Source of the DNA: a virus
Lineage: Duplodnaviria; Caudoviricetes
Direction: 5' to 3' (one strand)
IMG/VR virus record: IMGVR_UViG_3300021254_000027
Location: 41,543-105,542 of that record
DNA length: 64,000 bases
The translations under genes were made by a program, and so were the position numbers. Shown here piece after piece: positions 13,633-45,821 of this stretch. Position 1 is the first letter of the stretch, and each line of letters begins with the position of its first letter. A model generated the notes under the pieces. That model was not told the origin of the DNA. It searched no databases and was given only the letters and a program-made list of their open reading frames with translations.

Positions 13633-14019
13633 TTAGCCCTCCTCGTCAATAATAAGCTCCATAGCTTCAAGCTGCTTAGGCGTGAAATTCAAATCCTCAA
13701 TCAAAGATACAGGGATCATACGCAAGGCGACATCAGCAGTAAACTTATTAAGTTCTGCACGAGCCTCTTGACATTCCTGCTCTTTACCTTCAATAATCTT
13801 AAAGATGCCAGGCTCAGTTTGGATAAACTGGCCATTTTCATCTGTCTGTAAATACTTCTGCGCGAATGCGCGCTCTTGTTCAATATAAAACTCAGTTTCC
13901 TTAGCAAGCATTGCACTGTTTTTTGCAATCAAAAGGCTAAGCTTGAAAGGAAGTTCCTTATCCTTTAAAGTATCGAAAACCTCAGTAAGGTCATTAATCT
14001 GTCGAAAATTAAGTTCCAT
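13633..14019 (-). CDS. Small acidic protein, probable tail/fibre assembly chaperone (128 aa, TAG-free)
   Basis: Intact ORF with AAAAGGAG RBS directly downstream of the giant tail-tip gene; function inferred from position only. Confidence 0.55.
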   Translation of the reverse strand: MELNFRQINDLTEVFDTLKDKELPFKLSLLIAKNSAMLAKETEFYIEQERAFAQKYLQTDENGQFIQTEPGIFKIIEGKEQECQEARAELNKFTADVALRMIPVSLIEDLNFTPKQLEAMELIIDEEG

Positions 14020-17000: not shown

Positions 17001-20000
17001 TTATACCAGAAGAATTTTTCTATGTCAAGCCAAAATCTCCAATATGCCAAGGTGAAGTTGAACCAATTGTGCCTGCGCGAGCAGTTAAATATCCTTGCCA
17101 ATTAACGCTAAATAAAGGTTTAGTATTCGGTGAATATCCAGCAAAAATAGCATATTTATTAGCATCATTCAAAATAACTTCATTAATTCGTTTATCTTTT
17201 ATCTAATCTAAAGAATTAGCAAGATCATCATATAAACTATTACAATCTTTTATATCTTGATTATATTTAGCATCTAATTGCTTTTTCTTTACATAATACT
17301 CATCATAATTACTATTTTCTTTTAACCAAAGAGCACCTGCGGCAAGCATTTCATCATACTGTCTGGTATAACCATCTAAATGATAATTATAATACGCTCG
17401 TGCCCATTGAGAAAAATCTGTTAACCAAGCAACAGACAAACACTCATCATGACTAGTATCTAAAACGGTATGCAGATATGAAGGAGCTCCAAAAGCTTGC
17501 CACTATGCCATCCAAGTTTCATTAGAATCTTTCCCGCCATCTGACGAACCATAATATGTATTAGCAATATAAGTACATTCTTCGCTAAATAAAAATGGCT
17601 GTGTATTAAATGATTCAATACGCATTCCCTTTCCAGAAGTATTATATTCTTGATGTACATGAAGTGTTGTTTTATCAGCGCTCTAAACATCTACGTAATA
17701 ATAAATCCGCGTGCTATTATCATTGCCATAAGAATCTGACCATAAAGCATTAATTACATAACGACAAGCAGTTTGAGCACCGCCTATATATGCGAGACTA
17801 GGCTACCCATTTCGCCAATGAAAATGCGTACCAGTTCGCTCTTCTTTTGAGAAATACTCAATTAATAAAGATTCTAATAATTCTTTAGATACCATATCTC
17901 CATCAGTTTTAGATATCGCTTCATTAATAGCTAAAGATACGTTATCTGCCCAAGCAGCTTGCATATAATAATGTTCAGGATCATACTAAAAAATATGCGT
18001 ATAATATGATCCTATAAGATTACGTAATTTTTGTAAATAATTTAAATATAAAAGGGTTAAATCCCGTTCACGTTCTCTATCTAATATGCTTTTTTTAATA
18101 TTAATTTCTGTATTTAACTATGTTAATTCACTTAGATCATTTGTAGAATACCCTAAATACATGTAACGACTATCTAATAAAGTATCACCAGTATGTTTTT
18201 GATATAATCCTTGATTGCTAATCATCCAATTACCAATTTTACCATATCGAGCAATAATTCCACCAGAAGTCAATACTCCATTATTGGGGTCAACAATAAA
18301 ATAATCTTTGGTTTCATCATTTAAAAATTTATTTGCCCAAGCTGTTGATAACTCTAAACTATCTACTCCCTCTAATGGAGCCTAAGAGCTTTTTTTAGCT
18401 TCTGCATATAAAAAATATTGTGAATAGCCTAAATGATTTGTTAAATCAATAGAACCATCAGAAGAAATATTATATGTAATTGGATCTAAATTAATATACG
18501 CGGTTTTATCAACATTACTAATTAATGATTGATTACCATTAAATACAATTTGTCCCCGTCCAGATTTACCAATAAATCCAGTGCCATTTGTACGGAATCC
18601 AAATACTTGTCCGCCTTTTTCTAATCCATATATTCCAGGAATATCAAGAGATGCATCACCATAATCAGACCAGTTACCCATAACTACGCCAGTAAAAGCA
18701 TTATTATTATCTTTCGCTCCGGCGCTAATCATTTGCGCAAGAACCGCATTTTGAGCCTCATCTATAGTTAATTTACCATCCCAAGAATTAAGTAATGATG
18801 AACTATAAAGATTGCGGCTAAATGGTATAGCCTATTTAAATGTAACACCATTTTCTGTCCATTTCAAAATGGTATAATAATATTTCATATTATCGTCCCA
18901 ATACCAAGGACTATCATTAGTAGTATTGTGCTTATATGGATCTAATGAATATTCAATATGTCCAGGCAAATAATTTGCTGCCGCTTTACTTAAATCAATA
19001 AAACGAGAATCTCTTAAGTTCGCTGCAGCAGCTCTAATACTATCTAAATCACCGACTATATCTTGCTCTAAAATATTAGCAATAGTAGCGTTATATTCAT
19101 TTTGAATCATTTGTTCTAATTCTACATAGGTAGAAGAACTGCTTCCAGAAAATGGGTTTTTATTAAAAATCCAAGTTTCACTTCCATCTTCTGCGGCTTC
19201 TTTTGCATAATAAAGTAAATAATTATTATTCGTTGTAATCGCTTGTGAAAAGATTGGAGTTTCTTTTAAAGCTAAATAATCTGGCGTGGTTAATTGATTC
19301 CACGTACCAGCATTGTTTTTATACTAAATTAACTCCCAAGTTGGATATACATCTACAAAATTTTGTCCAACAGTTTGAGTTACTGAAAAAGTACCAATAT
19401 TACTTAACGGCACTGATCCATCTGATTTAAACTCTACACGATTTGGACAGCTAACACTATATTCCGCCGCTGCATCCGCGTCTGAGATTATTTTAAATCC
19501 TGCGACATTAGATAATATATAATCTGCTGCGCCTAAAACAGTTACCTTAAAAACTGGCGGCATATCATTGCGTAAATAACCAGTGATTTTATTACCAATA
19601 AAGAACGATCCATTTCCAATTGTCCAATTCTATTTATTATTACCTTCTTCATCTTGGAGTTCTTCTTCAGCGCTCTCAGTAATAATAGTTGGAGAAAGAC
19701 ATTCCCAAGAAAAAATATATTTACTGTTCTAAGATTCTTCCGCAGTTTTTCCTTTTTCTACAACATTCGCTACAATAGAAAATTTTTGATTCTAAACTAA
19801 AAATTCTCCTTCTGGTGCGAGTTGAGCAAATACAATAGTATATTGACTACCCATACTACCAGCTTGTCCAAAATGTAACTCAATTTGTGGATGATAAGTT
19901 TTACCTTTACGAGTTACAATCGCACCAATTGTATTATTTAAATAAGCTAAATCTAAATAGCTTTTAATCTTAAATTTACGAGTAATCGCACGAATACGAT

Positions 20001-22566
20001 CATTATATAGAGAACTAGCTCCTTCTAAAATAGGCGCTAATACGCTATTTGATAATTCGGCATCGGTAGGGACTGCCCACTAATCAATCATACTTAATGA
20101 TGTAGGTGGTTGCCAATTAACTTCTACTCCATTATCATCTGGATCATAAGTCATTGGAGAATAATTGCCAGTATCATTATTACGAATCCAAACCTACACA
20201 TAATACCAATAATCATTATATCTTACATTGTCTTTATCTTTAAGAACATAATTATTTTCATCATAAACATAAAAATCTCGTAAGCTATTATCTTCTACTA
20301 TATTAGTAATACCATTTTCATCAGTTTGTGCCCGCAATAATCTAAATGTAATTTCATTTAAACTATCAAGACTGCTAGTTTCAATAGAAGAATCTACATT
20401 AGTAAAAATAAGAGGCTCGGTTTCATATGGCACATCATTTACAGTTACTATTGCTTTCCATTGTTCGCGTGCGCGAGAAGCATTAGGAGTTACTCTATAA
20501 GTATCAAAATCTTCTCCAGTAGTAGACTCTAAATATTTCCAATTTAATCCGCCTTGTCTCTCAGCTAAGACGCTAGTATCTTGCAAACATCCATACTCAT
20601 AATGATACCATTGAAGCTTAGCTCCTACAGCATCTTCCCAATATTCAAAAGAAGATAAATCGTTATCATTTTTCTTTGCATAATGAGTAATTAAAATTGC
20701 TCCAGCATCAGTTAAATGTACCCAAGCAAATTTTAAAGTTTTTTCAGTTAATAACCATTCATATCCAGGCTGTTCCGCATATTTATTTGTTATTTCTTTT
20801 ATTTTTGCACTTTTTTCTACTGTATTTAAAGTCGAATCATTCTAAATGCTTAATATAGCTTCTTGATAAGTGCTATATTCTTGGGTATAAGTCAAAGCAT
20901 CTGTACCGTATTTAATATCATCATAAGTATATAAAAATACTCGATCAGTAGTGCATTCATCTGTTGTTAATCCCAATAGTGCAGATAAATTACTTACTTG
21001 AATATTAGATGGAATATTTTCATAAGGTATTTTCTATCCATAGACGTCCCAAAAATCATGGTCTTGCCAAAAGAAAACTCTAATTGATTCAAGAGTAAGC
21101 ATATTAGAAATATCAAAAATCTTCTATTGAATTGTAGGCTCATAAAATCCATAAGTATTACCATACATATCTTCATTAGTAAAATAAAGAGTCTGAATTG
21201 TAGATACAGATTTTTCTTCTTCAGTTGGACGAGTTTTCCCTTTTAACTCAATACGTAATCCATATCTTCCTCGCGCAGGACGATATTTTGACAATAAGGT
21301 TTTAAAATTTGCCGAAATCCCTAATTTAGTTTCAGCTAATGGGATAGTAGGATTTTCATTATCCCACTTCCATAAAAAATTTTTATTGTCTACATCTAAA
21401 CTAGTCGCCTCATAATAATCATTGATTGATTGATTATATGCGGCGACAGTAGAAGAATATGCTTTGTTAATTGGATCAGTATATTTATCATATACAGATT
21501 GTTCATAAGTTTTTAATAAATTATATTCTTCTTCAGTCCAATAATAATCAGTATCAATATGAGCATCTTCTAAATACTAATCAAACATATTTTCAAATTC
21601 GATGCTCGTCGTATCTGCATTATTTAAAACTTGCCCCAAAGCATTTGTGTATAAAAAGTCTATTAAAGAAGTAAAAGCCTTTTCATAATTTGTTGGTTCT
21701 GATTCTGTGCCATCAAGAGAATTGTACTATAACTAAAGTTCATTAATTCTTTTATTATGCTATTCAATCAATTGATCTATCTGAGCCTTACGTTCTTCAG
21801 TCGTTAAAGATGTATCTTGAGCAATATCCTATAAAGAATTACGATATTGTTTTTCGGCATCTAAAATATTTTCTTCTAACTCTTTAACTTTTGCTACAGT
21901 TAAATACATTGCACTCTACTCAGGGCTATAAAAGTTTTTTGTCGTCCAAGAAGTAGTCACATCATTTAAATGAGAAGATGCAATGTAAACTCCTCCATAT
22001 CGATTATAATGAGATTCAATTGAACCCTATAGTCTTTGATGATATCTATTATACACACTTAAAATATTCTAATATGTTGAAATTAATGAATCATCATATA
22101 GATTTTTTAAAGAATCTAACTAATTTATATAATCTTGTTCATTTTCAGTCTTACATCCATGTTCTGGTTTATTGGCCAAATAACCTTTTGATGTAAAAGT
22201 CGAATCGTGTGTTAAATCTTCTAAGCCGACAAATCTATCAAAAGGCATTTTGAAATTAAAATTGTAAGTTGCTGCTTCGGTGCCAGCATCTACTTTTCTG
22301 CCAATTATATATTTTTGTTTAGTAAAATCTCCCATTGGAACCATTACGTAAACGACTTCGTTTTCATAATAAGTTGCAGTATCTTGAGTATACGCATCAA
22401 ATTTACCATTTTCATACTCTACTTTATAAATACCTTCACTCTTCCGAGCAGTAGAAATTACCTTTGCTTCAATAGTTTGGTCATACTTATATTTTTTAAC
22501 AATGTTCTCTGATACAATACTAATTGCATCAAGTAGATTATTAGTATTAATTGCCAAACTACTCAC
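14044..22566 (-). CDS. Giant tail-tip/central fibre protein (~2840 aa with TAG=Gln)
   Basis: Track ORFs starting at 22566, 20586, 19563, 19110, 18732, 17439, 16896, 15465, 14952 are in one frame and all end at TAG except the last (TAA 14044); contains GxIGxW beta-repeat motifs. Absence of internal TAA/TGA only spot-checked. Confidence 0.7.
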
Positions 22567-22634
22567 TCCTTTTTCTCTACTCTAAAAAATTTTCAAAAAT
22601 CCACCCAATAAATTAATAATTACTACCCATAAAT

Positions 22635-22669
22635 AAAAAAATAGGGCGAGCATTGCTCGCCCTATTTTT
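22635..22669 (-). terminator. Intrinsic terminator after the tape measure gene
   Basis: ATAGGGCGAGCA-A-TGCTCGCCCTAT stem flanked by A/T runs. Confidence 0.8.
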
Positions 22670-25600
22670 ATCGTCTCCAAGCATACTAAGTTGCTTGGTT
22701 AATTAGATCATTAAATGCCATTTCAATTTCATTATGATCAGTGACATTCGGGAATTCAGCAGAGATTGAAACATTCTATTCTAGCTCTTGTGGTTGCATA
22801 TGAACGGTTCTAACAGAAGCGAGACTACCAAGTCCATATAACATACCAAGTGCATTATCCATTACCGCGGATTGTAATAAATCAAATACACTAGAATCAA
22901 TAGAACGAACAAATTGAACCGCGCTTAAAATCTTAGAAGTATCATCTGCATTTAACATTAATTCTGGACTACTAGAACTACCATCTACCCAAGCTGGACC
23001 AGTATAATCTACTAAACCACCTGATAAATAAGTAGGAATATTATTAGTATAAATTGTATTATAGGCTGCTTTTGCTGCATCTTTAACCGCTTTCTATTCT
23101 GCGGCACTCATTTCATCAGTAATAAGATTTTGAAATTGTGCGTCAATATCAGTCATAGCTCCACTTAAAGCGGCTGCTTTAGTATGATAGCCATCACTCA
23201 TACCACTTAAAATAGCTCCATTATAATTATATTGCCATCCATAAGACCAATTTTTATTTTTTGCAATAGCACCGCCACCGCCTCCCTAAATAGCGGTATC
23301 TATCATTGTATCTGTGCCCGCTACTTGTTTAATCGCACCTGCAGCAGCATTAGCCAATTCTTCATACTCTTCAATAAGGGCATTAAGAATTTCTGCATGT
23401 GCAACCCAAGCATCAGTAGTGTCATTTATATTATATAAGGTTTCTTGTAATGTATTATTAATTTCTGTCATACCATCTTGAGCGTGCGCGACAGCTTCAT
23501 CATAATCATCAATAGAAGCGGTCATATCTTCCCAATTTAATCCACTTTCAGAAGAAATATTATTTAAATCTTCTGAATAGGCATGTAATGCTTCATAAAT
23601 TGAACCGCCAGGCTTCATTTGCTCTTCTAAATATGTCGCATAATCAGACAATCCAGATCCCATCATTAATTGACGTACTGATTCATTAAGCTAATCTTGC
23701 AGTTTGTTAGCATTATCATATATAGAAGTTCCATATCTCTATTGTACATATTGCTAGTTAGTTAATAAAGCATTAGTAGCATTTACATATTGTTCTTGTA
23801 AGAATTGCATTGTTTCATTATGCTGTCTAGTTAATTCTTCCATTTTCTATTGACGCTCTTCAATAGTTAAAGTGGTATCTTGAGCAATACTTTGTAAATT
23901 GTCTCTATAATCTTGTTCTACTTCTAATACTTTTTGCTCCAATTCAGAAGTACGATTCGCCGCAAGTTCATTAATCTATTGTAACATATCATCAACTTGT
24001 TGCCGTGCTTTATTAACATCATCTTCATTTGCCGTATACTGATAACCAAAATTACCATTTTCGTCGCGTGTTAATCGAACTGTAGATTTTGCATTTTGTG
24101 CTTCTTCTAATGCCTATAAAGCAAGAGCGTGTTTATATTGAAGCTCCATCATTTGTACATCATATTCTGTTAATTGATTCTTTTCTGCCATCGCATTAAT
24201 TTCTTGCTGCAATGCTCTTAAGCGTTCTTTACTACGCTTTGTTGTTGAATCAGCAATACTATCTTCAATATCACGATTTAATTTAGCTATATCATGTAAT
24301 TCTTTAGCTGTTGATAAATACCAAGACTATTGCTCTTGATAATAAGCGTATTCATCTTGTAAACTAGACCAAGAATCCTTTAATCCGCTAATAGCCTCAT
24401 CAAATGCTTCAACCGCTGCAGCAACAGCATTTTCAAATAGAGCTTGCGCATCAGTTAAGGCATTATTTGTATATTTAACTAATTGATCCTCTTGATCTCT
24501 AATATGCTCACTTAATTCATCCCACTATGTCTATAAAATTTTAGGAACCTCATTTTCTGCATAAACTGACATTTGCACACGTAAAATACGTTCTTGCTCT
24601 TTTAAAGTGTTAAGATATTCATGCGCAGAAGAAACATTAGCATTACTATAACGCAACTATGCTTCATACATTGTCGTTAACTCACGATAATTTTGTCCTC
24701 GTCCCATAAGCTGTTGCATTTCAATATAATTTGCAATCATATCTCGTGCATGACCTAATGTATCAATATGTTTTTGCATTTCTTCATCAGCTTTATCTAA
24801 AGTTTCACCATAAGTTTCTTCAATTTGTTTCTATAATTCATTAAGATTTTTAAGCTATTCTAAAATTTTGGAATTTACTTCATTCATGCCTGTTGCATAT
24901 TCATTGTCCTATAAAGTACCATCCGCTCTAAGATGAATAAGCTCTTGGTATTCTTCATTAAGTGCGGCTAAATTATCTTCATATAATAGACTTTGATTAG
25001 TTAAAGATACCATAATATCATCTTGTCGCGCCAAAAAATCTTGCCATTTATTTTGGAAATACTCTAATAATTTTATATCTCGTTCATTAATTTCTGCACG
25101 AATTTGAACTTTATACTGAATCCCTTCTAATGCAGTCTATGAAATTTTGTTTTCATTTTCTAGAATATCATTTTGAATAGTGTCTATTAAATCTAAATCT
25201 TCTTCGTAATTTTTAAGCAATTCTTCTGCGTCTTCTTTTGCTTTTTTGGCGGCATCTAATGCTAATTGATCTTTTGCTGACTAACTTGACTAATTAAATT
25301 TATCCACTGCTGCATTATACTGACGAATAATACGATCCATATATTCACTATAATTTACAGTACCATCGTCATTAAGTATTTCATTACCAAATTGTGAAAT
25401 AATCTAATTTTTATTAATACTAAAATTAGTCCGAGCTTGATTTAAATATTCTGCTTGTAATGCGTTTTCTTTTTGTAGCGCTTTAATTTCTGCATTAATA
25501 TTTTTAAGATGCTATGCGCCATAAGCACGACTTTTTAATTTGTCAATACGAGCTAATAAATTACTCTATTTTTCTAATTGATCACGAATCTCATGATAAC

Positions 25601-28600
25601 GTTCTTTTTTTGGAACTTCATATTTTTCGATTTTCTTTTTGCCACCTCCGCCGCCACCTCCGCCGCCTCCGGATCCTTTTTTACCACCGCCACCTTTGGC
25701 TGGAGCTCCTTTCTTACTTACGGATTCAATTCTTGGTACCCATAATTGTTCATTTGTATCTGACATAGAATCTGCTGAAACAGGATTATAACTACCATCA
25801 ATATTTAAAACATAACCAACTGTTCGCATTTCTGTAACTTGTTTAGCACTATAAGGGCCATCCCATACAATTCTAGGCTCCCAACCAATGCCATTTAAAG
25901 CAGCAGTAATCTAATCTGCTGTCATAGTGCCACTAGACAATAAATTATTAAGAGTTGTCATAATTTTGCCTTCGGCACTTTGAGTATCAGCGTCTACAGT
26001 TAAAGTAATATTATCCATGTTATCCCATTGATCAAAAGCGCGTTGGAAAAAAGAATCAACATTATTCAACTATTCAATAGTTCCTTCTTCATCAATAGGA
26101 ATTTCAATTGGATCAATAGGAGTATTTGTTAATTCTTGCGCCCGCATATAAGCCTCAATAAAATTATCTTCAATCGCATCTTGTGCTGCTTTAGCCTCTT
26201 CTTCTGTTCCTTCTGCCATAAGTCTAAAATTATCAATATTACTTTCAACAAAATTTTCAACTTCTTTTGTACTACCCTTAAAAGCTTTTTTTAAATCTTG
26301 TCCTAATAATTTTGTTGCTATTTTAGTTAAATCCTAAAGACCCTTTCTCCAAGTTGCGGTTCCTTTTTTACTGCTATCAGCCATTGTTTTCCAAGTTTCA
26401 TCTGAAATTTCTGCTAAATCTTCTAATGCCTATTGATATAATCCTATTTGTTTTATAAATTCTGCCAATTCAACTGCACGATCAGATAATTCTCCTGGCT
26501 CTACATCTTCAAAATTACCCATTTCTCGAGCTCGATTTTCATAATAATCCCAGTCTTCTTCAGATAATCCGGAATTTTCTTTAAGTGTATCAATGTTAGT
26601 TCGATAAGCCTCTTCTGTAAAATTTGTTTTTTGATCATCTGTTGGAGCGAATTCATCAGAATCTAAATTAGCAATATCTGCATTTTCAATTAAAGCAACT
26701 TCAATGGTATACTGACCAGAAGCATTTGTCCCAGTCATATGCGCTTCATAATAACTGCCATCTGGATTAATGCCCTAATCACTATTAATTAAATCAATAT
26801 AATTTTGAGCTGCTTCTGCAGAATCAAAAGTTGTTTGAATACTCATATTAGAGTCTTTACCGAAACGGACATGATCACCTTCAGTTAATAATGTTCTAGT
26901 CCCTCCCTATACTAATTGACCTCTTTCATTTAAAGTATATCCGGCATTTATTGCATTTGTAAAACGAGTTAAAGACTCTGCTGCTCTATCTGCGGATGTT
27001 GCTAAGTTAACATTTGCTTGTTGTAAAACCTCTTCGCCGACTTGATCTAAATTATCTAAAGTAACATTGGCAAAACCTGCATTATTTAATGCAGTTACAA
27101 GGTCTTGCCGATCTTCAATTTTCCACTATGAAAAATTTTCTTTCATTGCTCTCTAAACAATAGCTTGATCTTGATCAATTTGAGTTTTTTGAGCATTATA
27201 ACTACTTTCTCGTTCTGCTTTAAGATCTGATGAGTAACGCATCCAATTAACATTACTAGATAAAATGGCTTCAGAAATTTCATCAGCAATTGCTTCTCTA
27301 GTTCCTAATGCTTCAACGTCTGCTTCAACCAACTATTCAATTATTGATGCATTTAAGTCTCTTTGAGCAAATCCATATTTACCTTCATTTTGAACAATAG
27401 TGCCATTATTTAATAATCCCTAAGCAATTGTTACTAATGAATCAAAAGTATCAGCATTATAATCTTCACCAAGCTCTTTAGCAATGGCCTCTCGATTAAC
27501 GAATCCTTCTGAAATATTTCCTTGGCCTAAATCAGAAGCTATTTCTACAATTTTTAATAAAACATCAGGATCATCAAGAAATTCTATAGCATGTGGGTTA
27601 TTTTGATAAAATTCAGTTCTGCCTTCTTTAAATCTTGTTAAAAAATCATCTACTGTAACATTCTAAATTCTTCCATCCGCTGTAGCTGGTAAATATTGTA
27701 AAATTCCAGTATTTAAAGCCCCGCTATTTCGGAATGAACTATAACTAATTTCATCTAATACAGTAGATAAAAAATTTGGATCTAACATTTTTTGAGCTAT
27801 TACTTCAACTCCTAATTCTGGATGTTTTTGAACATAAGCTCTATAAATTTCTAATAATTCTTCATCAGATAAAGTATCAACAATAGATTTATTACTATCG
27901 CTATCAAATGCTTCTGCTCTTAATTTTCCAATGGCAGAAAAAATAGTTTTCCATCGACTTAACATCTATTGTGCCTGAGCTTCATCATGGGCATCAATCT
28001 AATCATACACCCCTATAATAATATCATAAATTTCCGCCCAAGTAGAATCAGCTTCATTTTTAAACTTTGTTAATGTTTTACTATATTGATTTTCAAATGC
28101 ATTTATAAAAACGTCTAAACTTCCACCCGAAGCGAGGTAATCAGAAACATTTTTATAATCTCCTAATTCTGATAGTGTTGATTTCACAATTTGATCAAAT
28201 ATTTCTCGCTAAGCATCATTTAAAGAAGGATCATCCCAAAATTCACCATCTAAGTATTCTGTTGTAAATTTTTCAGTAGCAATAAATAACGCAGCTTGAT
28301 TTAGAGCTTCATCAAGAGTTGAAAAACTTTCTTCCATTAATACTATACTATGATCTAAAGAATCAACTATCTTATATACAACTTGATTAGTTTCTTCATC
28401 AATAGTTGTAATAACATCCATACCTGCCATATGTAAAATATCTTTTTTTGTATTTTGTGAGTCCGCAGCAAACTATTGTCTACGATTAACATCATTCCAT
28501 CCAAATAAATTTTGGTCATTCTAATAAGCCTACCAAGCATCATCAAATGTTGCATACTAGTCTTCTTCAGAACGGCCTTCATTAGCCATAGATAATAATA

Positions 28601-31600
28601 CTGCTTTTTGTAAATTCGTCATTTTATTTGGGTCAAGTTCAAAAGCATCGTCAAATATGTCTTCTGTTAATCCTAAACTCGCCCATAAATCAGAGAAATC
28701 ATTATTTTTAACCAAATGAGCTATTTTATTTTTAATTACTTCAAGAATTTTAGATTCTAGGTCTCCTGCTTCAAATTCTGTTTCACTAAAACCTTTAGAT
28801 ATTCCTTCCATTAAATATCTACCTATTTCCATTGTACGTCTAGATGGAGATGCAATTCCAAAAGCCGCTTTAAATGCAGCAATAGTATCATCTGAAAACC
28901 CTAAAATACTAAAAAACATTGCTTGTTCTTCTGAATTCATCCCTCTAATAATACCAGCAATTAACTAAGCTCCAACACTATTAGTATCAAAAAGTTCATT
29001 ATTATTTTTTAAATATTCAACATATTTTTGAATAATCGCAACAGCTTCTTGCTCTATTTCATCAGTATTTTTTAATGTATGATCTTCATTAAATAAATAA
29101 CCCTACATTAAAGCATCCATAAATCCAACCATTGCATCATTATCATATTCAAAAGCGCTTCCAAAATTCCAGCCGCCTAAATTTGTCATCTATAGGATAT
29201 TACTCATTGCATATCTAAAAATGTCAGATTGAGCATAATCCTACATAGAATGATTTGCCGCAAAATCTAATTCTTCATAACTTAATGCATTTTCTAATAA
29301 TTCATCTATATTTAAATTCTATCCATCTTCATTTACTGCTTCAGTGATAACAGAAAATGTTATAGGAATTTTTAAGCCAAGCTAATTATTATCTCCTAAA
29401 GCATGCATCAATTCCCAACCATAGCCGTCCTCGCTTATCGCCTTTTGCACATCATCAATACTTTGAACATTAAAAGTATTTTTAAATGCTTGGAACATAC
29501 GTATTAAATCTTGACCACTCGTAATATAGCCGCTAAAATTATATTTTTCTAATAACGCTTCTGCCATAGCTAATTGATCATTACTATTTTCTACGGCGTC
29601 CATATCAAAAAGATCACTTAATACATCATTACCATAATTAAATTGATAAGTATCAAATTCGTCTGTATAGCCCCCTTCATTTGCATAAACTCTTTGCCAT
29701 TCTTTACTATATGGATTAAACCACTATAATGTTTCTCCAGCATTCTAATAATTTAAAGAAGCTATACCTTCTCCATTTGGATTTGACCCAAATAAATTTG
29801 TTCCACGAACATTGCCATTAAATGACTAACGATGTTGTTCTAATTCAGTAGGATCTACTAAATTTTTTAATTGCGTACTATAATCAGAAATTCTCTATGC
29901 TGCAAAATGTGTACCAGCGCCCATAATTTGCAATAAACTATGTTCTCCATCAACATTAGGATTCTAAAGTAATGCCTAGTCCCAACGTCCTCCATAATTA
30001 TCTAAAACATAATCAACGATATTAACATCTGTCATTTTACCCGCGCCGTATCTAGATCCTGAACCACCAACAAAATCTGCGGCCCAATAGCCATGAGAAT
30101 CCCAATTTAAAACATCATCCGCGGTTCCAGCGATAGATTCATTATAACGCTTATTACGTGTACTAAAACGAGATGCATCATAATGAATGGCATTTTCCAT
30201 AGCTTCATACTATATAGTAATAACTTTAGTTTCTGGATCTAGATCAATTACTGGTCTAAATGGATCCGTGGCAGTACCAGTTCCTGTTGTTCCCTCTCCA
30301 GCTTCGGATACAATAGTAATACCCAATTCATTTGCTTCTTCATCTGTAATTTTTTCAAATACAGGACCATTTTCGCCTTTTTTAATTAACCATGTCGCGC
30401 CATCAGTTCCAATTAAAATAGTATCACCGTTTACAGTTTTACCAGTGCCTTTGATTGACACTAAATTACCAGAAGAGTCTACCGCCCAAACTTCACCAGA
30501 TTTTGACATTAAAATTTGATAACCATTAACACTCTAATTAGTATTAGTTAATGCCTATAATTGTCCTTTATTATCCGCGAGCCACATCTATTTTTTATCA
30601 GGGCTCATATAAATATTGTAACCATTTACGCTAGTCCCATAAGGAACTAATGCTTGTAAATTACCACTATTATCTGCTAACCACATTTTGCCATCTTCTG
30701 GACTCATATATAAAGAATATCCTTCAATAGAACCATAAGGGTTTAGTGACTATAAATTGCCTTCTCCATCAGCAAGCCACATCTAATTTTCATCAGGGCT
30801 CATATATATATTATAACCATCAATACTTTGACCAATATTAGTTAACGACTATAAATTACCTTCTCCATCAGCTAACCACATTTTATCTTTATCAGGACTC
30901 ATATATATATTATAACCATTAACACTTTGACCAACATTAGTCAACTACTATAAATTACCTTCTTTATCAGCTAACCACATTTTGTTTTCATCTGGACTCA
31001 TATATACATTATAGCCATTTATTGATCCATAAGAAGTTAATTCTTGTAAATTGCCTTCATTATCAGCCAACCACATTTTACCATCTTCTGGACTCATATA
31101 TATATGATATCCATCAGTTGATTGACCAACATTTTCTAAAGGAACTAATTCATTATTGTCATCTTTTAAATAAGGACTATTAGAAGCATCTGTCCAAAGA
31201 GTATAACCACCTTGCCCACTTAATTCTTTTAATCCAGGTTCTCCTTCATTGCTTTCGACAAAATCTCCAATAGATTCATCTTCAATTATATACTAAGCAG
31301 AACTACCAGTAATAGGATGCAACGCATAATTATCCTAAACATAATGTACATCAGCTTCTTCAACAACTTTAATCTTAACTGTATTTCCGTTTAATCCCTA
31401 AGCTGCGTTAAATCGCTCTGTCTATATCTCTGCTCCCTATAACAAAGTAGCAATTTTTAAATTAGCTACCGCCCAAGCTTGGCTAATATCAGTTTCGTTT
31501 TCTGTTTTACCAATATTTTTAATTAATCGATCAGCTTCTTCCGCGGAATATCCTAAATCAATTAACTATTGTTTTAAAGCTTCTAACCCCGAAAAAGTTG

Positions 31601-34600
31601 ATAAAGAATCTAAATCTTCTAAGTCTGAAACCAAAGTTTCAATTTTTTTTAGCTATTCTTCATCTTTATCCCATTCAGCATCTGCTGATTTCGATGCATA
31701 ATCTTTAAGAGTATTATAATAATCTAAAGTTAAAGCCTATTTTTCTTGCTAAATTTCAATTAATTTTGCTTTATCTGTTGCATATAATTGTTCTAGAGCA
31801 GAATAATATTCCATTGCTTTAGTATAACTATACTTGGTCCATTCAACAGCATTCATATTAGTATATTTATCAAATACAGATTCATCAAAAATACTTAAAT
31901 TTGCCAATTCTTCACTAGTTAATGTTCCAAAACCTTTTAATCCCTTTTTAAATTCACTAATAGCTTTATTAGTATTAAAAATATCTTTGCCAATAGTTTT
32001 CCAATATTCTGCAGAAGATAATGTTTTTCCCGTAGAAGCAATAGTATCTTGTGTTTCTACTAAGTCTGCACTTAACTAATCACCAGTCATTAAATTTTCA
32101 TTAAGAACACCTATTTGCTCGTTTAAATCTGCCGCGCGAGAATACATTTCATCATAAGCTGAAGTTGCAGCCTCCCAATCTGAATAGTTATGCTCTCTAG
32201 CAAAAGTTGCTTGGTCTTCTTCTGACCCTTCTTTAGCTGCCTCATAAGCACTTAACCAATCATTTCGAGAAGATAATTCAGCCTACAATGTTGCTCGACG
32301 ATTACTTGCATCTGCATAAGATTCTCCATAATTATTTTCAAATTCTGCTATCCATGTATTATATTCATTCAAAATTTCTTCATATTTTTCTTCCGCCGCG
32401 ATTCGTTCATTTTCTAAGGCTTCCATTTCTGCAGTTAAAACTTCTGCTTCCATCTATTCATATAAAGCAATTCTAGTACTTGCACTTTGACGAACAAAAT
32501 TTTGTAAATCTCCTTGAGTTTTAAATAATCCAGATTCCCATAGCTGCTCATATTCCTCACGGCTTATCGTATCTTGAGTCATTATTTTTTTATTTGCTTC
32601 TAAAGATTTCTCTTTTTGTACCTATTTTTCAGCTTCAATTTCTGCCAAAGCCAATTTTTTTGCAGAATTACGAATCCCAACAGCATTTCCTTGTTTATCA
32701 AAAATAATATCACTTGGCTTAATTCTTAATGCTGCTTCAATTGTTAATCCATTATTTTTATCTAATAATAAATTTTCGATCTACTTCTAAACATTTTCTT
32801 TTATATCAGGATTATTAATACTACCAATTGAAGCTCCCTTTTGAGCTATTTCTTGAATAGCCTATAACTACAAAGCTCCTTCACTATACTGGTCAAAACC
32901 TGAAATATAATCTAATAAATTAGCTCTATTAACTCCAGTATTTTTATTTCCAGGCTCTAATGTTTGAGTAATTAATTCATTGATTTCTCGAGCAGTTGCC
33001 GCAGATTTTCCATGTCGAACTACATCAAAATTACCGCTTTCAAATAAATCATTAATCAATGATGCATATTCAAAATTATCTATCGCATCAGCTAAAACAT
33101 TAATATTATTATTTTTTAATGATGTTAAAACTGAACCTGTAAAAGTTCCAGAACCAGTATTAATACCTGTAAATCTATCTCCAGTTAATAGACGGTATAA
33201 TCCCAAAGGATCCTATTCAACATTTTCACCTTTTAATGTAGTAAACTGCCCATCAACGAAATTATATCCTAAAGATCGTAATTCATATAAGAAATCTTCA
33301 TTCGCCCAAACCTGTCCTTCGTCGCTCCAGTGCTAAGCACGCCACTAATTATCAGTATCATCCCATAAAGATTCTGTATCTCCTAAATCCTAATAAAACT
33401 AACTATCTTCTCCGTAATAATCTATCCAAGCTGCATCATTAAATAAACTAAGTGTGCCCTCATCACGTTTTGGCATATCACTAAAAAAGGATTTCCCCTA
33501 ATAAGTCTAACGAGTTTCAACAGTCTATGCAACTAATTGCTCAGCCTCTTCAACTTCTCGCTAAGCTTCATCTAATAAATAATTAGTTTTTCCTCTTGTT
33601 AATTCCTAAATCTAATTAGTTAAACCAGCATAACTACCAGTCAAAATATCTACTGCATTGGCTTGAATACCATATTTTTCAGTAATTTCATTAATTTTAT
33701 CTAACTACTCCTAATAAGTAAGAGTAGTATCATTCATAATACTACTTAAATTTTGTAAATCAATTTTTAAATCATCTGAAGCTTTTTTATTTCGTTTAAT
33801 GGCTGCTGTTGTTGCATCTGCTTTAGTTTTTAATTCCTCTTCTGCTTTAATTTGAGCCTTTCGTTGAGCATTATAGGCAATAAGCGCAGTTCCAGCTATA
33901 GCAATTGCTGCACCAATAGCAATCCAACCAGCAGGGCCTTGTAATGCTTTTAAAGCCATTTCTATAATAAACTAAGTTATTTTTAATCCATTAAAAATAC
34001 CCTATTGGGCAATAGTTCCTCCCATAGCAACGGTTTCAGCTTGCTATAATTTAATGCTAATAACTCTCTATACATTCTATAGTTTATCTATTGCTACTTG
34101 CTTTAATTTTAAAGTATTATGTAAAGTTGTTAATCCATTTAAAAGGGTTGTAGATCCAATTAATATCGATAAGATTCCAGCAAAACGTTCTCCTGCTGAA
34201 GCGCCACTATCAAAAGCTGCTTTAAATCCAGAAGAAATACTAGCAATACCAGCACCCAATTGAACAATTCCACCAAGCGCAATACTTAATGAATCGCTAA
34301 ATTTTCTGCCACTATTATTAGCTGTATCTTCCATTTGTCTTCCAATTGATTCTGTTTCTTCATCAAGACTTTCTGCATTGGTCTAAGCATTTTGAAGTTC
34401 ATTATTTAATTCTGTAACACCATCAGCACTATCTCCAGTAGCTTCAACTAATCTTTCTCCATCAGCAATAATTTCCTCTTGAGCATCACGTATTTCTTTT
34501 AATTTTGCTTTAATTTTTTCTAAAGTTTCGTTTGCAGCATCTAAAGATTCAAAACTCTTAGTGTCTCCCATAATTTCTGAAATACCTTCATTTTGAGCTA

Positions 34601-36935
34601 AATCAGAATCTTGTCCTCCTATTGCTTCTGTAATTGAAGCTCTTGCAGTATCTGCATCATATTCTCCATCTTTCATAAATCTTTGAGATTCTTGACCAGC
34701 AAAACCTTCTTCTAATTTTTTAGTAGCTGTATCTACATCGGTCTAAGTTTGTAATCCTTGAGACATTAATTTTTTACCTAAACGATCTAATTCTTCAGCT
34801 ACCTAAGCACCTGCTTCAGTAATTTCAGGAGAAACAACACTACTACTATTTTTTAATTTTCTACCCTATTCTGTTAAAGCTTTTTCTACATCACTTAATC
34901 CTAGATCCTAAGCAACAATTTTACTTTGTTCACTTAATCGAGCAGTAGCTGTTTGCATTGTTGCAATAGCAGCTCTTTGCTCTTTACCAGACTCTAAAGA
35001 TTTATATGCTTGATTTGCTTGAGTTCCACTTTCTACTTCTTTACCATATTTAACTTTTAAACCAGTAACAGTGCCTTTTGCCGCAGCAGCTTCACGAGCT
35101 TTATTTTGATACTAAGTCTACAAACTATTATACTATTCTATTTGAGCATTGGTCATTCTATGAGCATTTTGCGCTTGAACGGCATTAATACGATATAATT
35201 CACTATTATATCCATATTCTGCACTTCGAGTTGCATTAGTTGCTGCTCTATTTGAATTACCCATTTTCGCAGCAGCATTAGAATTCATTTGAGCAGACCA
35301 AGCATTTTCTCGACTTAACTATGCAGATTCTGTCATTGTTGCAATATTCTTTTTATTTGCGGCACCACTTAAAATGGCAATATTATCTACCATTTTAGAA
35401 ATGCCCTAACCTACTAATCCAGTAGTGCCTAATTTAGTTGCAAATACTCCACCAATTGTAGTTAAAATTGGTACAATACCACCTAATTTATCTATTAATG
35501 TTGTCACACCATTAATAACACCAGTAATACCATCTTGCATAGTAATAAATACTTTATCATTTAAAATTTCAGAGTATAAACCTTGCATAGCATTTTTAGC
35601 TCGTCCAGCGGCAGCTTCCCAACTTTTCGCCCAAATTGCCTATTGTTCTTCTAATTCTCCATCAGAATTAAGCGCAACATCAACATTAATTTTATATTGA
35701 TCCCAATTCTCAAACAATGCCATCAAAGAAGTATACTGACGAGCACCACCAATTGTTTGAGCAACTGCACTTTTTTGTGCTTTACTTAATGTAGACCATT
35801 TATTACCTAATTCTTCAATAACAGTGCCCATGTCGCGCAATTCGCCTGTAGCGTCAAGAACTTGAACACCAACAGTTTGCAACGCTTTAGAATATTTATT
35901 AAGATCAACACCATCTTCAAGAGTTTCGCCTAATTTTAAGCCGCCCATACGACTTAAAATAGTATTCATAGATGTACCAACTGTTTCTGCTGACTAACGA
36001 GTAACACTTGCAACAGTAGCAATCATTGAAGACATTTGTTCCATTTTTACACCAACAGTATTAGCAGTTGCACCAACTTTTTGCATTGCAGTTGCAATTT
36101 CTTCCATACTAGAAGCAGTATTAGCACCAAGAGCAGCCATAATATCAACATAATGTTCCATTTGATCTGCTCCAACTTGATAAGCGTTCCATACCGCGGT
36201 TAAGTATTGAGACATTTCTTTTGTGCTACTACTAAAAGCAATATTCGCAGCTTTCATAGTAATTGTAGCTTTATTTATAGCTTCAGCTGTTTTATCACCC
36301 TATTGGTAGAAAATTAATGCAGCATCTGAAAATGCTAATGTAGATGCACTTAATCCCTTTGCAGCAGACTAAGCTTTTTGAGCAAAATCTGCAATTTCAG
36401 CATTACTCATTTTTGTAACTACTTGAATACTCGTTAAAGATTCATTTAAATCTTTCGTATAACGAATTGCATTATTTACTGCACTAATAGTGCCATGAAT
36501 AATACTTGAAGAAATTTGCCACTATGCAGTTTTCTTTAAATTAGTTAATAAATTCGTAAAAGCGCCATTTAAAGTAACTGTTTGCTACCGCATCTAAGCC
36601 ATACTAGATAAAACTTGATTAAAAGCAGCTTGTCCTTCCGCACCAAACCCCATCATCTAATCACGAATGGTAGTTAAATTAGTTTTAGATTCCTTTAAAC
36701 TTCTATTAAAAGCTGAAAAATTAATTTTCCCAGTGTCAACATTAACTGCCGCAGTTAAAGCTTTCTATAAATCTCTTGCACCCTAAACTCCATTTTTTAA
36801 TTCCAAAGTATCAAATTTTAAAGGCTATACTTTAGTAATAGAATTTAAAGTATTTTGTAAATTCTACAATTCTGAACGAGCAGCTTGAGTTTCGGCAGTA
36901 ACTTTTAAAGTCGATACAACAGTATTAGCCGCCAT
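22668..36935 (-). CDS. Tape measure protein, ~4755 aa with TAG=Gln
   Basis: ATG 36935 after AAAGGAG; 18 track fragments (starts 36257 down to 22958) lie in this frame; TP901-type TMP core (AALGANTASSMEEIATAMQKVGATA...GTSMNTILSRM), Gly-rich linker, coiled coils; TAA 22668-22670 followed by a terminator. Confidence 0.85.
30450..31140 (-). repeat. About seven tandem 32-33-aa coding repeats inside the tape measure gene
   Basis: Consensus GYNIYMSPDxxKMWLADxxGNLQxLxxxGxS read directly from the sequence. Confidence 0.9.
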
Positions 36936-38768: not shown

Positions 38769-39884
38769 TTAAATACTCTCGGTAAAACGACCAGGAGCCT
38801 GCTTACCAGAGTCTTCATAAATTGTACCAGGAATGACTTCACCAGCAACAGTAGCAGCAGCGCCACCATCATAAAGGTTAACATCTTCAACAATCTGAAG
38901 TGCAGCAATTACCTTCTTGGTCTTATCAAACTTAGTATAATCTGGGAATGCATCCATAGTAAAGGTGAAGGTAGAAGGATCACCAGTAGGAGCCATTGTA
39001 AATGTGAAGTTAGACTGAATCTTGCAGTTTGGAATTACAAACTCAGCAGGATAATCTTCGCCAGTACCCTGATCACGGAACAAGGTAGAAGCCTCAAGAT
39101 AGTAAGATCCACCAAATTTACCAGCTTCAATATCAATCTGCTTTACATATTGAGTACTCTTTACATAGTAATCAACATACATAATAGAGCCAGGATTATC
39201 TGGATCAGTACCATCAACATAGTCAACAATTTCCTCTGCAGATGCAGCATTCTTATACTTATCAAGTTCAGACTGGAACTGAGTAGCTACAGGAGCAGTA
39301 GCATTCATGATCTTGCCTGCATTAATAAGTTCAGTGTGACTCTCATTATAATTGTCACGCCATGCAGAGAAAGCATCAGCCAAAGTAATGGTCGCGCCAC
39401 TCATATAGGCAGGATCAGCACCATCAGAACCTTGAAGTGGGATATCCATAGGAACACGATTAGTATTAATAGAACCATCATCATTCTTTAACATGATATA
39501 CAAAGAACCAGCCTTCGCAGGAACATGAGAAAGAGTTAACTGACCATTCTTAACCTGGACTTCTTCAGTAGTATGAATAAAAATTGGATGATCTTCATCA
39601 GCATCCATAAATCCAGCACCAGAAAGAATAGAGAAGCTTTCTGGAGAAATCAAAGCATCTTCCATTGTAAAGGTAACAGTACGGTCACCTTCCCAAGCAA
39701 CCAAACGAGGGTTACCGCGTCCACCCTGAGCATAAACAGTGGTACTCTGGCCTTCAAGAGATGAAGTCTTCAAAGTATCAAAATACATAACAGGCATATC
39801 CTTATCGAGATAAAGCTTGCCGAAATAACCGCCAGTCTTTCTCTTAAGAACGACGTCGCAAATTTCGCGTACACCAAATTTCAT
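38769..39884 (-). CDS. Major tail (tube) protein, 371 aa, TAG-free
   Basis: MKFGVREICDVV...LKTSSLEGQSTTVYAQGGRGNPRLVAWEG...IPNCKIQSNFTFTMAPTGDPSTFTFTMDAF; strong RBS; lies between neck and TMP genes. Confidence 0.85.
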   Translation of the reverse strand: MKFGVREICDVVLKRKTGGYFGKLYLDKDMPVMYFDTLKTSSLEGQSTTVYAQGGRGNPRLVAWEGDRTVTFTMEDALISPESFSILSGAGFMDADEDHPIFIHTTEEVQVKNGQLTLSHVPAKAGSLYIMLKNDDGSINTNRVPMDIPLQGSDGADPAYMSGATITLADAFSAWRDNYNESHTELINAGKIMNATAPVATQFQSELDKYKNAASAEEIVDYVDGTDPDNPGSIMYVDYYVKSTQYVKQIDIEAGKFGGSYYLEASTLFRDQGTGEDYPAEFVIPNCKIQSNFTFTMAPTGDPSTFTFTMDAFPDYTKFDKTKKVIAALQIVEDVNLYDGGAAATVAGEVIPGTIYEDSGKQAPGRFTESI

Positions 39885-43063: not shown

Positions 43064-43672
43064 TTAACCCTCCTCATTAGAGGTTTTCTTTACAACATTA
43101 TACTTCGGAGAAGTTCTGCGCCCAGAAGTTTCCTTAGCTGCAGCTGGCTGTACTCGACGACCAGTAGGAGTCTCAACTTTCATTCCACTGGATGTTTCTT
43201 CTGCAGCAGCAGCTGCTTCTGCTTCAAGTTCAGCCTTATGCTTAAGCGCAAGAGATATATCAAATCCAGTTTTCTCCTTAATCGCACTAATCTTACGAGT
43301 ATCAGTCACTGGAAGCTCAAGCGCATACTTCTGAACCAAATCAATAACGCCGCCAGGTGCAAAATCAAGACAGTCTAATAGGGCATCAACTGAGCCATTC
43401 TTTAGAAGATCAATAACTCCCTTGTCGTCTAAATAATACTCAGGTTCTACGTGAGATGTAGTCTCATTCACCGTTTCGGCATCTTCAATAAATAATTCAT
43501 CGCGCAAAATAGAGAGCCCACCGCTCTTTTGAGCTAGCGCAATCAATTCTGCCGCAGGCAGCATCTTAGTCTCACCGGGTGCGAATTCTCGGCGTACGCC
43601 CAAGTCTGGCACTCTATAGATTACGATGGAATTACTTCTATTGCGAACCTTTACCTTCTTGTTAGTATCCAT
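43064..43672 (-). CDS. Head-module protein (202 aa, TAG-free)
   Basis: Likely true start MDTNKKVKVRN at 43672 after AAAAGGAG; directly downstream of the capsid gene. Confidence 0.65.
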   Translation of the reverse strand: MDTNKKVKVRNRSNSIVIYRVPDLGVRREFAPGETKMLPAAELIALAQKSGGLSILRDELFIEDAETVNETTSHVEPEYYLDDKGVIDLLKNGSVDALLDCLDFAPGGVIDLVQKYALELPVTDTRKISAIKEKTGFDISLALKHKAELEAEAAAAAEETSSGMKVETPTGRRVQPAAAKETSGRRTSPKYNVVKKTSNEEG

Positions 43673-43738: not shown

Positions 43739-43895
43739 TTAAGCTTTAACTACGTAATAAGTCTTTCCTTCAACAAGTTCAGAATCAGAGGTCTTTACGT
43801 AATTATTATCAACCTTTTCATAGTAAGTTCCAATGTTAGCAACATCAGGATTAGTTACAACTTCATACTCAGGCTCAGTTACCGCCGGGCTAGGG
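43739..43895 (-). CDS. Putative +1 frameshift extension (50 aa) of the major capsid protein
   Basis: CCC-TAG at 43895-43890; the +1 frame reads SPAVTEPEYEVVTNPDVANIGTYYEKVDNNYVKTSDSELVEGKTYYVVKA-TAA and has no plausible independent RBS/start. Confidence 0.7.
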
Positions 43896-44960
43896 AGATA
43901 CCGACTGCTGATCGCCGGTATATACTCCAAACTGACCTTCAAGGTCCTTATTTACATAGATACAAATGTCAGGAGTCATAACTACACCGACACCGACCTT
44001 CTTGTATACCTGGATCTCACGAGAACGGTCCTTGTTAACATATTCATCAACAATAGTAGAACCTTCCATGACAATCTTAACAGGCTTTACATTTCCAGGA
44101 AGAATGTAACAATAGCCAGGATCAATAACCTTAGTAGTATGAGTTGCATCAGTGAATCCCTGAGGGAGAATGTTAATAATATGGTTACGATAAGATGCGA
44201 AACGTCCATTGTTCCACAAAGTATCCTTCATATTATCAGACCAACGTACATAAGTACCATTATCAGTTTCAGGAAGAATAGTTGCGGCAAACTCTTCAGT
44301 GCAATAGATGGTAGGAGTACCATAAGCAGAAGAGATAGCGAGCAAGCGATCAAAAGCCTGCTGATCAAAACCATTTACCTTAACAGTATTAAGAGCAGGG
44401 AGCTGAGTCAAACCTTCCTTAAGAGCAGCACCGACTTCCCACTGAATGAGCTCTTCGATACCCTCCATAACAATCTGAGTAACCTCAGCAAAATCAGCAC
44501 GTCCATCCAAGAACTCTTCAAGACCAATCTGCGCGGCTCCGCCGATAGCACTGGTCTGAACTTCGATTGGAGTATCCTTACCAAGCTTAAATACTTCGTA
44601 GATACCAGCCAAACCAACCTTGGTAATGAACTGCTTTGCACGCTGACGATCATGCTTACGCCAGAACATAGTAGAATTGCCCTGAGCGATGGTCTTTACT
44701 TCAGCAAACTTCATATATTCTTCTTCAACCTTCTTAGGAAGAATATCGTCCATAGTCTCCTCAATGATGGAGAAGATAGTATTCTTATTCTCACGATAAA
44801 GTGCGAATGTACCAGCGAGCTCGTTCAATTCCTTACGAAGAGTCTCATTAAGAGCATCATAAGACAAATTCTCGCCATTGAATGAGTAAGCAACAGGAGC
44901 AGAGCGATCAGCCTTAGCAGTTGCTTTCATTAACTTAACAAGTTCATTTCTTTCCAACAT
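43875..44960 (-). CDS. Major capsid protein (356 aa to TAG at 43890; 361 aa to TGA if TAG is read as Gln)
   Basis: Size, position after protease/scaffold, strong RBS and optimised codons; LNELAG...YRENKNTIFSIIEETMDDILPKKV. Confidence 0.85.
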
Positions 44961-44981: not shown

Positions 44982-45821
44982 TTACTTTACACGCATTACC
45001 TTAACGGCCGGCTGCATGTCACCTAAATTATAAATCTTAACAACCTGCCACTGGAATGGGGAATTGGTAGCGCCAGTTGCACTCAAATAACCATGAGCAT
45101 TAGGAGCAAGAACAGAACCTAAAGTCACAGTAGCATCAGCAATAGTATTAGTAGTGAAAATATCGCCTTCGTGAGTCTTAAATACACGAGGAACCATCAA
45201 ACCAGCCCTATTGTTAGCATTAAAACCATCAGCACCAGGAGCCTTACCAGTACGGTCAGGCTGTGCATACTCAGCCATCTGAGGAACATTCAAGCGCTCT
45301 ACCTCATAGCTATTACCAATAGCATAATGATTACGACCATAATCAGGAGCTACACCAGCTGCATTATCATGAGCATCTGGATAAATCTCAACCTGAGCCT
45401 GAATCTTCTTCATCATATCCCAATCAGCAGAAGTCTGATAACCATTAATACGAACGCCATTAGGACCAAAAGCCTGACCAACGCCCATACCAGTAGCCTG
45501 AGCACCAACACCAACTGGAGAATAAACACGACCATTATAGTCACGACGAATCATTGCGAAGTCCTGATCGGTTTCGTGATCACGATAAACCTTAACTTCA
45601 TTGAAAACAAGCATCCATTCACCGATGCCAGAGAAATTAACTACGCCATTAGCATAGTCGTACTTTACGAACTGACCATTCTCAAGAATATCAATATCTG
45701 CGGCAACAGGCAACTGAGCGTAAATTTCGCCAGTACGCTGAGCACTGAGATGGTTTGGCTCGACCTGACCGAAGCCATAGGTTACGAATTTAGCTTCGGG
45801 AGATAAACGTGTAAAAGCCAT
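44982..45821 (-). CDS. Capsid-associated (decoration/cement-like) protein, 279 aa, TAG-free
   Basis: Between scaffold and MCP; FGQVEPNHLSAQRTGEIYAQLP; strong AAGGAGG RBS. Confidence 0.65.
   Translation of the reverse strand: MAFTRLSPEAKFVTYGFGQVEPNHLSAQRTGEIYAQLPVAADIDILENGQFVKYDYANGVVNFSGIGEWMLVFNEVKVYRDHETDQDFAMIRRDYNGRVYSPVGVGAQATGMGVGQAFGPNGVRINGYQTSADWDMMKKIQAQVEIYPDAHDNAAGVAPDYGRNHYAIGNSYEVERLNVPQMAEYAQPDRTGKAPGADGFNANNRAGLMVPRVFKTHEGDIFTTNTIADATVTLGSVLAPNAHGYLSATGATNSPFQWQVVKIYNLGDMQPAVKVMRVK

Follow-up and report, generated by a model that had tools for sequence, protein, structure and literature searches.

A candidate programmed +1 frameshift at a recoded TAG codon near the end of a phage major capsid gene

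Why does a phage that reads TAG as glutamine carry a single TAG in its major capsid gene, a few codons before the stop, directly behind a rare CCC codon and at the entrance to an open +1 frame? The window analysed here, a stretch of 64,000 nucleotides, is part of a 105.5-kb phage contig that is 61% complete, and the same capsid protein is also encoded on a 170.8-kb contig. The features in question are as follows.

44960..43875, minus strand: major capsid protein gene, YonB-like with HK97 fold; 361 aa with TAG read as Gln, 356 aa if TAG stops
43928..43930, minus strand: TTG in the +1 frame at the base of the hairpin, taken by gene callers as the start of a 62-63-aa ORF
43894..43928, minus strand: predicted mRNA hairpin of 12 bp (4 bp and 8 bp with a 3-nt bulge between), whose 3′ arm extends over the E-site codon and into the CCC codon up to its second base
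43890..43895, minus strand: candidate +1 shift site CCC-TAG, with tRNA-Pro re-pairing from CCC to CCU; identical in loci L048, L102, L202 and L203
43875..43892, minus strand: frame-0 tail QPGGN followed by TGA, a backup stop if TAG is read as Gln; invariant at the protein level in five loci
43739..43891, minus strand: +1 frame with a 7-aa linker and a 43-aa Tyr-rich module, ending in TAA
43701..43724, minus strand: GC-rich inverted repeat 3′ of the +1 stop, with no U-run

The phage clearly reads TAG as Gln (code 15). Its late genes on the minus strand are open only under this reading and are ended by TAA or TGA, and its replication genes are nearly free of TAG. Two long open reading frames (22668-36935 with 119 TAG in 4755 codons and 14044-22680 with 43 TAG in 2878 codons) set a lower bound on the efficiency of read-through. 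For the former the computed yield of full-length protein is 9% at 98% read-through and 0.2% at 95%, so that about 98% is needed and RF1 termination at TAG should be minor while virions assemble. Genes for probable abundant virion proteins (window 13633-14019, 38769-39884, 43064-43672 and 44982-45821) are TAG-free and mostly prefer CAG, and their neighbours contain many TAG codons and prefer CAA. The lack of TAG in abundant virion genes other than that of the capsid marks it as a probably costly codon. TTT-TAG (8 cases) and CTT-TAG (5 cases) occur in the late genes at the expected frequency; UAG is a sense codon late in infection that is avoided in abundant genes, yet not after slippery codons. 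Phage-encoded amber suppressor tRNAs are present in about 40% of code-15 genomes; tRNA searches of the 105.5-kb contig, which represents 61% of the genome, were empty, and a release factor was not seen there either. Relatives use codes 11, 4 and 15, and within the same capsid family L033-L036 apparently use code 4 while L028-L031 and L038-L041 apparently use the standard code. Judging from a genome size of about 170 kb, the origin from cattle samples and the mixed codes, this is probably an Agate-like stop-codon-recoded gut phage.

The assignment as major capsid gene made in an earlier note on this DNA is backed by several lines of evidence. The protein family matches Pfam YonB, an annotated Bacillus phage major capsid protein is weakly similar, and a model of a relative with an in-frame fusion (P0032) matched HK97-fold shells in a Foldseek search (E 1.7e-7). 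In relatives PF27364 and an upstream YonD_N are present, which corresponds to a head-module position. The TAG is codon 357 and the sole TAG of the gene, the remaining 15 Gln codons all being CAG, and it is flanked by the gene's only two CCC codons (the other Pro codons are ten CCT and one CCA). In-frame CCC-TAG occurs once in the 105.5-kb contig, in the capsid gene only, and CCC precedes the stop at no other gene end of the contig. Termination at TAG, reading as Gln and a +1 shift give products of 356, 361 and 406 aa with computed masses of 39.9, 40.4 and 45.5 kDa; these lengths and the TAG count, as given earlier, were verified in the sequence. Some relatives carry TAG elsewhere in the capsid gene (L042 at codon 30, L051 in the tail, L037 at codons 68, 84 and 146), and a single capsid TAG is thus not unique to the lineage with the candidate frameshift. 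The GC-rich repeat behind the +1 stop was not predicted as a terminator. Similar repeats follow the capsid stop in relatives, where the hairpin is kept with differing sequences, and a role as mRNA stability or processing element is probable.

By its sequence the +1 frame encodes a bona fide module. The module comprises its last 43 residues, and in relatives it is fused in frame to the same capsid protein. It was modelled as short strands plus one helix (pLDDT 94), and the linker ahead of it is disordered, with low confidence, in the model of an in-frame fusion. A profile search recovered 849 cluster representatives, among which repeats are frequent; the module was also found in SLH surface proteins, Dit, tail proteins and an unrelated capsid protein. 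Widespread as it is, the module is without a family entry in the libraries searched: Pfam, PHROGs and a protein atlas gave no match and the PDB no clear fold match, by which a new fold is not shown. It is not an Ig-like or FN3 domain, as it has 43 aa compared to the about 80-100 residues of such a beta-sandwich. Secreted SLH-domain proteins of about 1900 aa (P0172-P0176) contain several copies each, and the sequences suggest an exchange of the module between bacterial surface proteins and virions. In an unrelated major head protein (phrog_544; L204:1676-2737) the module is inserted internally, showing that it decorates capsids in more than one way. One internal copy (residues 347-391) is also found in a 665-aa, TAG-free and CAG-rich gene of the same phage outside the window (G000:C1:31139-33136, minus strand). 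From these occurrences we infer that the module is probably displayed on the virion surface via a flexible linker and aids adhesion. Adenine-directed variation of the module, as in DGR-like systems, was rejected, as the changes are mixed transitions.

Among 43 distinct capsid genes the module is in frame in 16, absent from 24 and out of frame in three. Capsid genes that are nearly identical thus exist with the display module in any of the three states, and since these are scattered over the capsid tree, the tails appear to be swapped by recombination. Its absence from more than half of the genes marks the module as dispensable. The CCC-TAG-CCC junction with the +1 frame was also found in L048 and L102 (JGI), L202 (ENA) and L203 (Logan). 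Including the phage studied here, three DNA variants are known whose capsid genes are about 20-25% diverged at synonymous sites; a fourth variant with the same gene layout and overlap is known at the protein level. Across the variants the +1 frame contains zero stops and zero indels, and the cassette sits on two non-sister capsid backgrounds. No further junction was found in a DNA pattern search of viral contigs, no second case of the CCC-TAG motif occurred in about 200 loci, and no in-frame version of this cassette was found in searches that were incomplete. CCC-TAG and the +1 ORF, whose conservation in relatives had been named earlier as a check, are kept in three DNA variants, and the gene layout in one protein variant, but within one small lineage only.

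Is the +1 frame under selection? About 10 nonsynonymous and 6 synonymous changes were counted, giving a pN/pS of about 0.6 that is not distinguishable from neutral; pairs of in-frame modules range from 0.20 to 0.66 and span the out-of-frame value. We then scored the module changes against a profile of about 400 homologous stretches and compared them to random nonsynonymous transitions. Nine changes cost 5 nats where 17 +/- 6 were expected (P 0.006; with a profile lacking this capsid family 0.008, and at worst 0.033), a result that is based on few changes and that might possibly be affected by exchange with in-frame copies. The conserved aromatic core is spared by the changes. Two changes in one lineage are costly, and L048 has a damaging Thr to Ile replacement where the residue is otherwise almost invariant. 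At synonymous sites the module is half as diverged as the capsid gene body, which might indicate that the cassette is young and was spread by recombination.

A feature that the earlier note did not contain and that was added by this analysis is the predicted hairpin directly upstream of the shift site. With -16 kcal/mol it ties for the strongest 39-nt window of the capsid gene, the window having been picked post hoc; a second hairpin of about -16 kcal/mol lies within the gene (window 44520-44560, minus strand, capsid nt about 400-440). The hairpin is stronger than shuffled sequences (z -3.2) and synonymous resamplings (P 0.001-0.02), and it outdoes the same position in 30 of 30 other relatives. 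All variants retain it: one C-G pair is replaced by U-A in a double change, C-A being the intermediate, one G-U pair is replaced by G-C, and a 3-nt indel is confined to the loop, a covariation count that comprises four distinct sequences. The hairpin is partly made of synonymous changes unique to this lineage, and its 5′ arm contains GGA and ACC codons that are absent from all 24 other tails compared. For 70S ribosomes (PMC6321510) and for yeast (PMC3639245) it has been described that upstream hairpins promote +1 shifts. Downstream of the shift site no stable 3′ stimulatory structure was predicted. An internal Shine-Dalgarno of the RF2 type was rejected, since the GGAG about 30 nt upstream of CCC is too far away.

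Taken together, a functional +1 frameshift at this site, whether as a fixed leak or linked to the genetic code, appears likely to us, and we somewhat favour the specific reading that a fixed, leaky programmed +1 frameshift puts the surface module on a minority of capsid subunits. With UAG occupying the A site, peptidyl-tRNA-Pro would be paired to the rare CCC codon and might re-pair on CCU while the A site awaits the UAG-reading Gln-tRNA (or RF1 before the code change); refolding of the hairpin against the E site would favour the forward slip. The majority of ribosomes would keep the frame and produce the 361-aa form, and the ratio of decorated to undecorated subunits would probably be roughly fixed in late infection. 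As inferred from known +1 sites, a slip in the P site competes with decoding in the A site, and therefore the slip, if real, would depend to some extent on how fast UAG is read; this would be a mechanical dependence as at any such site and would imply no selected switch. The +1 slip proposed earlier finds indirect support in the in-frame fusions, the retention in multiple strains, the conservative changes and the hairpin abutting the site. A -2 slip was rejected on sequence as there is no re-pairing codon, and so was transcriptional slippage as there is no long run.

The strongest alternative is a vestige, in which an in-frame linker with CCT-AGC-CCG gained one C to become CCC-TAG-CCC, harmlessly switching the module off and leaving a drifting +1 frame and incidental slips. 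A single insertion would account for the TAG together with the two rare CCC codons, the linker in the +1 frame is like the in-frame linkers of relatives, loss of the module is tolerated among these, and neither a pN/pS not significantly below 1 nor a lineage with two costly changes would be out of place. This reading, however, leaves the lineage-specific hairpin and its compensating changes unexplained, and the sparing of the aromatic core, the two non-sister backgrounds and the lack of an in-frame version of the cassette in the incomplete searches also speak against it; we consider it possible but rather unlikely. The predicted hairpin would be the feature that a plain insertion explains least well, but it was compared in few sequences and in a window picked post hoc. 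It also appears doubtful that the site is a selected switch in which the extent or the timing of decoration is governed by suppressor tRNA as opposed to RF1 activity. Such a switch would fit the probably costly nature of TAG in abundant virion genes, the TAG-free capsid body that yields a complete protein under either code, and the A-site competition that governs known +1 sites (PMC6321510). The 119-TAG gene, however, demands that termination be nearly off at virion assembly, TTT-TAG and CTT-TAG occur freely in late genes, the 356-aa and 361-aa forms are both undecorated, about 200 loci held no second case, and the sequenced 61% of the genome yielded no suppressor tRNA or release factor. It is correspondingly improbable that the decorated share tracks the state of the code switch, with more slipping or termination early and mostly Gln read-through late. 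The three-way switch between RF1, suppressor tRNA and slip suggested in the earlier note is thus not upheld, considering the near-complete late read-through, the slippery TAG contexts that are not avoided, the restriction to one lineage and the single inserted C that suffices to create the motif.

The remaining explanations have, even jointly, only a small share of probability. Contrary to the earlier statement that the +1 segment has no start of its own, gene callers use the upstream TTG (43930-43928), a few bases downstream of a GAAGG, and a separate 62-63-aa module protein might be translated from it, possibly unmasked when ribosomes translating the capsid gene open the hairpin. Yet module-less relatives get a TTG or ATG at this place from Phe-Gly or Tyr-Gly codons, the first 12 residues would be off-frame capsid codons, and a free module would have no evident anchor. 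The sequence indicates that the TTG is probably a by-product of Phe-Gly codons, and a separate protein is distinctly improbable. The matched CCC codons on both sides of the TAG had been noted earlier to fit stop-hopping as well, and hops are known on synthetic constructs (PMC5009743). The second CCC is, however, explained by AGC-CCG, which encodes Ser-Pro in the +1 frame, and hopping thereby loses its support; it would yield 360 aa without decoration and with no evident use, and a natural case was not known to the review (PMC5009743), so that we regard stop-hopping as the purpose of the motif as highly improbable. Finally, the frames differ by a single base and one extra C might stem from sequencing or assembly, but the junction recurs unchanged in diverged strains that were assembled separately at JGI, ENA and Logan, which makes such an error very unlikely, indeed nearly negligible.

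The site bears on the efficiency of TAG read-through and the timing of the code switch in recoded phages. One very abundant protein would have three distinguishable C-termini, from which rumen metaproteomes could directly tell how often ribosomes terminate, read through or slip. An active hairpin would mean that bacterial ribosomes are stimulated to a +1 slip by 5′ refolding in a natural setting; if the slip is linked to the code, the site would amount to a natural readout of the balance of suppressor-tRNA and RF1 activity in a recoded phage.

Structural proteins of SPP1 and Listeria phages are extended by CCC-stop and CCC-U +1 shifts (PMC6316719, PMC5009743). As in these extensions of the SPP1/PSA type, the capsid gene described here has a rare CCC followed by U near its 3′ end and an open +1 frame with a folded accessory domain. 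The earlier note had cited CCC-stop shifts in the SPP1 tail tube and the PSA capsid, which is correct for SPP1; in PSA, however, the capsid gene has CCC before a sense codon together with a pseudoknot, and CCC-stop is found in tail genes only (PMC5009743). The tail genes, namely SPP1 gp17.1/gp17.1* (CCC-UAA) and the tsh genes of Listeria phages PSA, A118 and A500 (CCC-UGA), share the rare CCC before the stop, the re-pairing on CCU and an optional surface domain on some of the subunits (3:1 in SPP1) (PMC6316719, PMC5009743). They differ in that the product is a tail tube protein, the A-site codon is a true stop, the domain is FN3 in SPP1, and the structure upstream of the site has -4.6 to -9.1 kcal/mol compared to -16 here. 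The closest match to the recoded state, where TAG is sense, is cps of Listeria phage PSA (AJ312240; PMC5009743), likewise a major capsid gene with a CCC-U +1 slip few codons before the frame-0 stop and a C-terminal extension of similar size. There, UCC is in the A site and a pseudoknot follows, whereas here it is UAG with a predicted 5′ hairpin as the candidate stimulator and no predicted stable 3′ structure.

Mobile Ig-like display domains recombine into phage structural proteins in or out of frame, and out-of-frame copies are rescued by frameshifting (PMC5009743). The scatter of the three module states over the capsid tree resembles this pattern, but the unit is a 43-aa Tyr-rich repeat without Pfam or PHROG match and too small for an Ig fold. 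As with refolding upstream hairpins (PMC3639245, PMC6321510), the predicted hairpin is located next to the E site and precedes a candidate +1 site whose A-site codon may be slow; the published +1 data are from reporter constructs, and here the predicted stem extends into the P-site codon. Recoded gut phages (10.1101/2021.08.26.457843) and phAss-1 (PMC10607447), whose capsid protein is 51% identical to the one described here, also have TAG as Gln in structural genes and TAG-free replication genes. The text of these two publications does not mention frameshifting, and literature searches, of incomplete coverage, returned no phage described to frameshift at a reassigned stop. By analogy, the mechanism would belong to the known type of CCC +1 capsid and tail extensions; what would set it apart are the reassigned codon in the A site, the hairpin 5′ of the site and a module that is not Ig-like.
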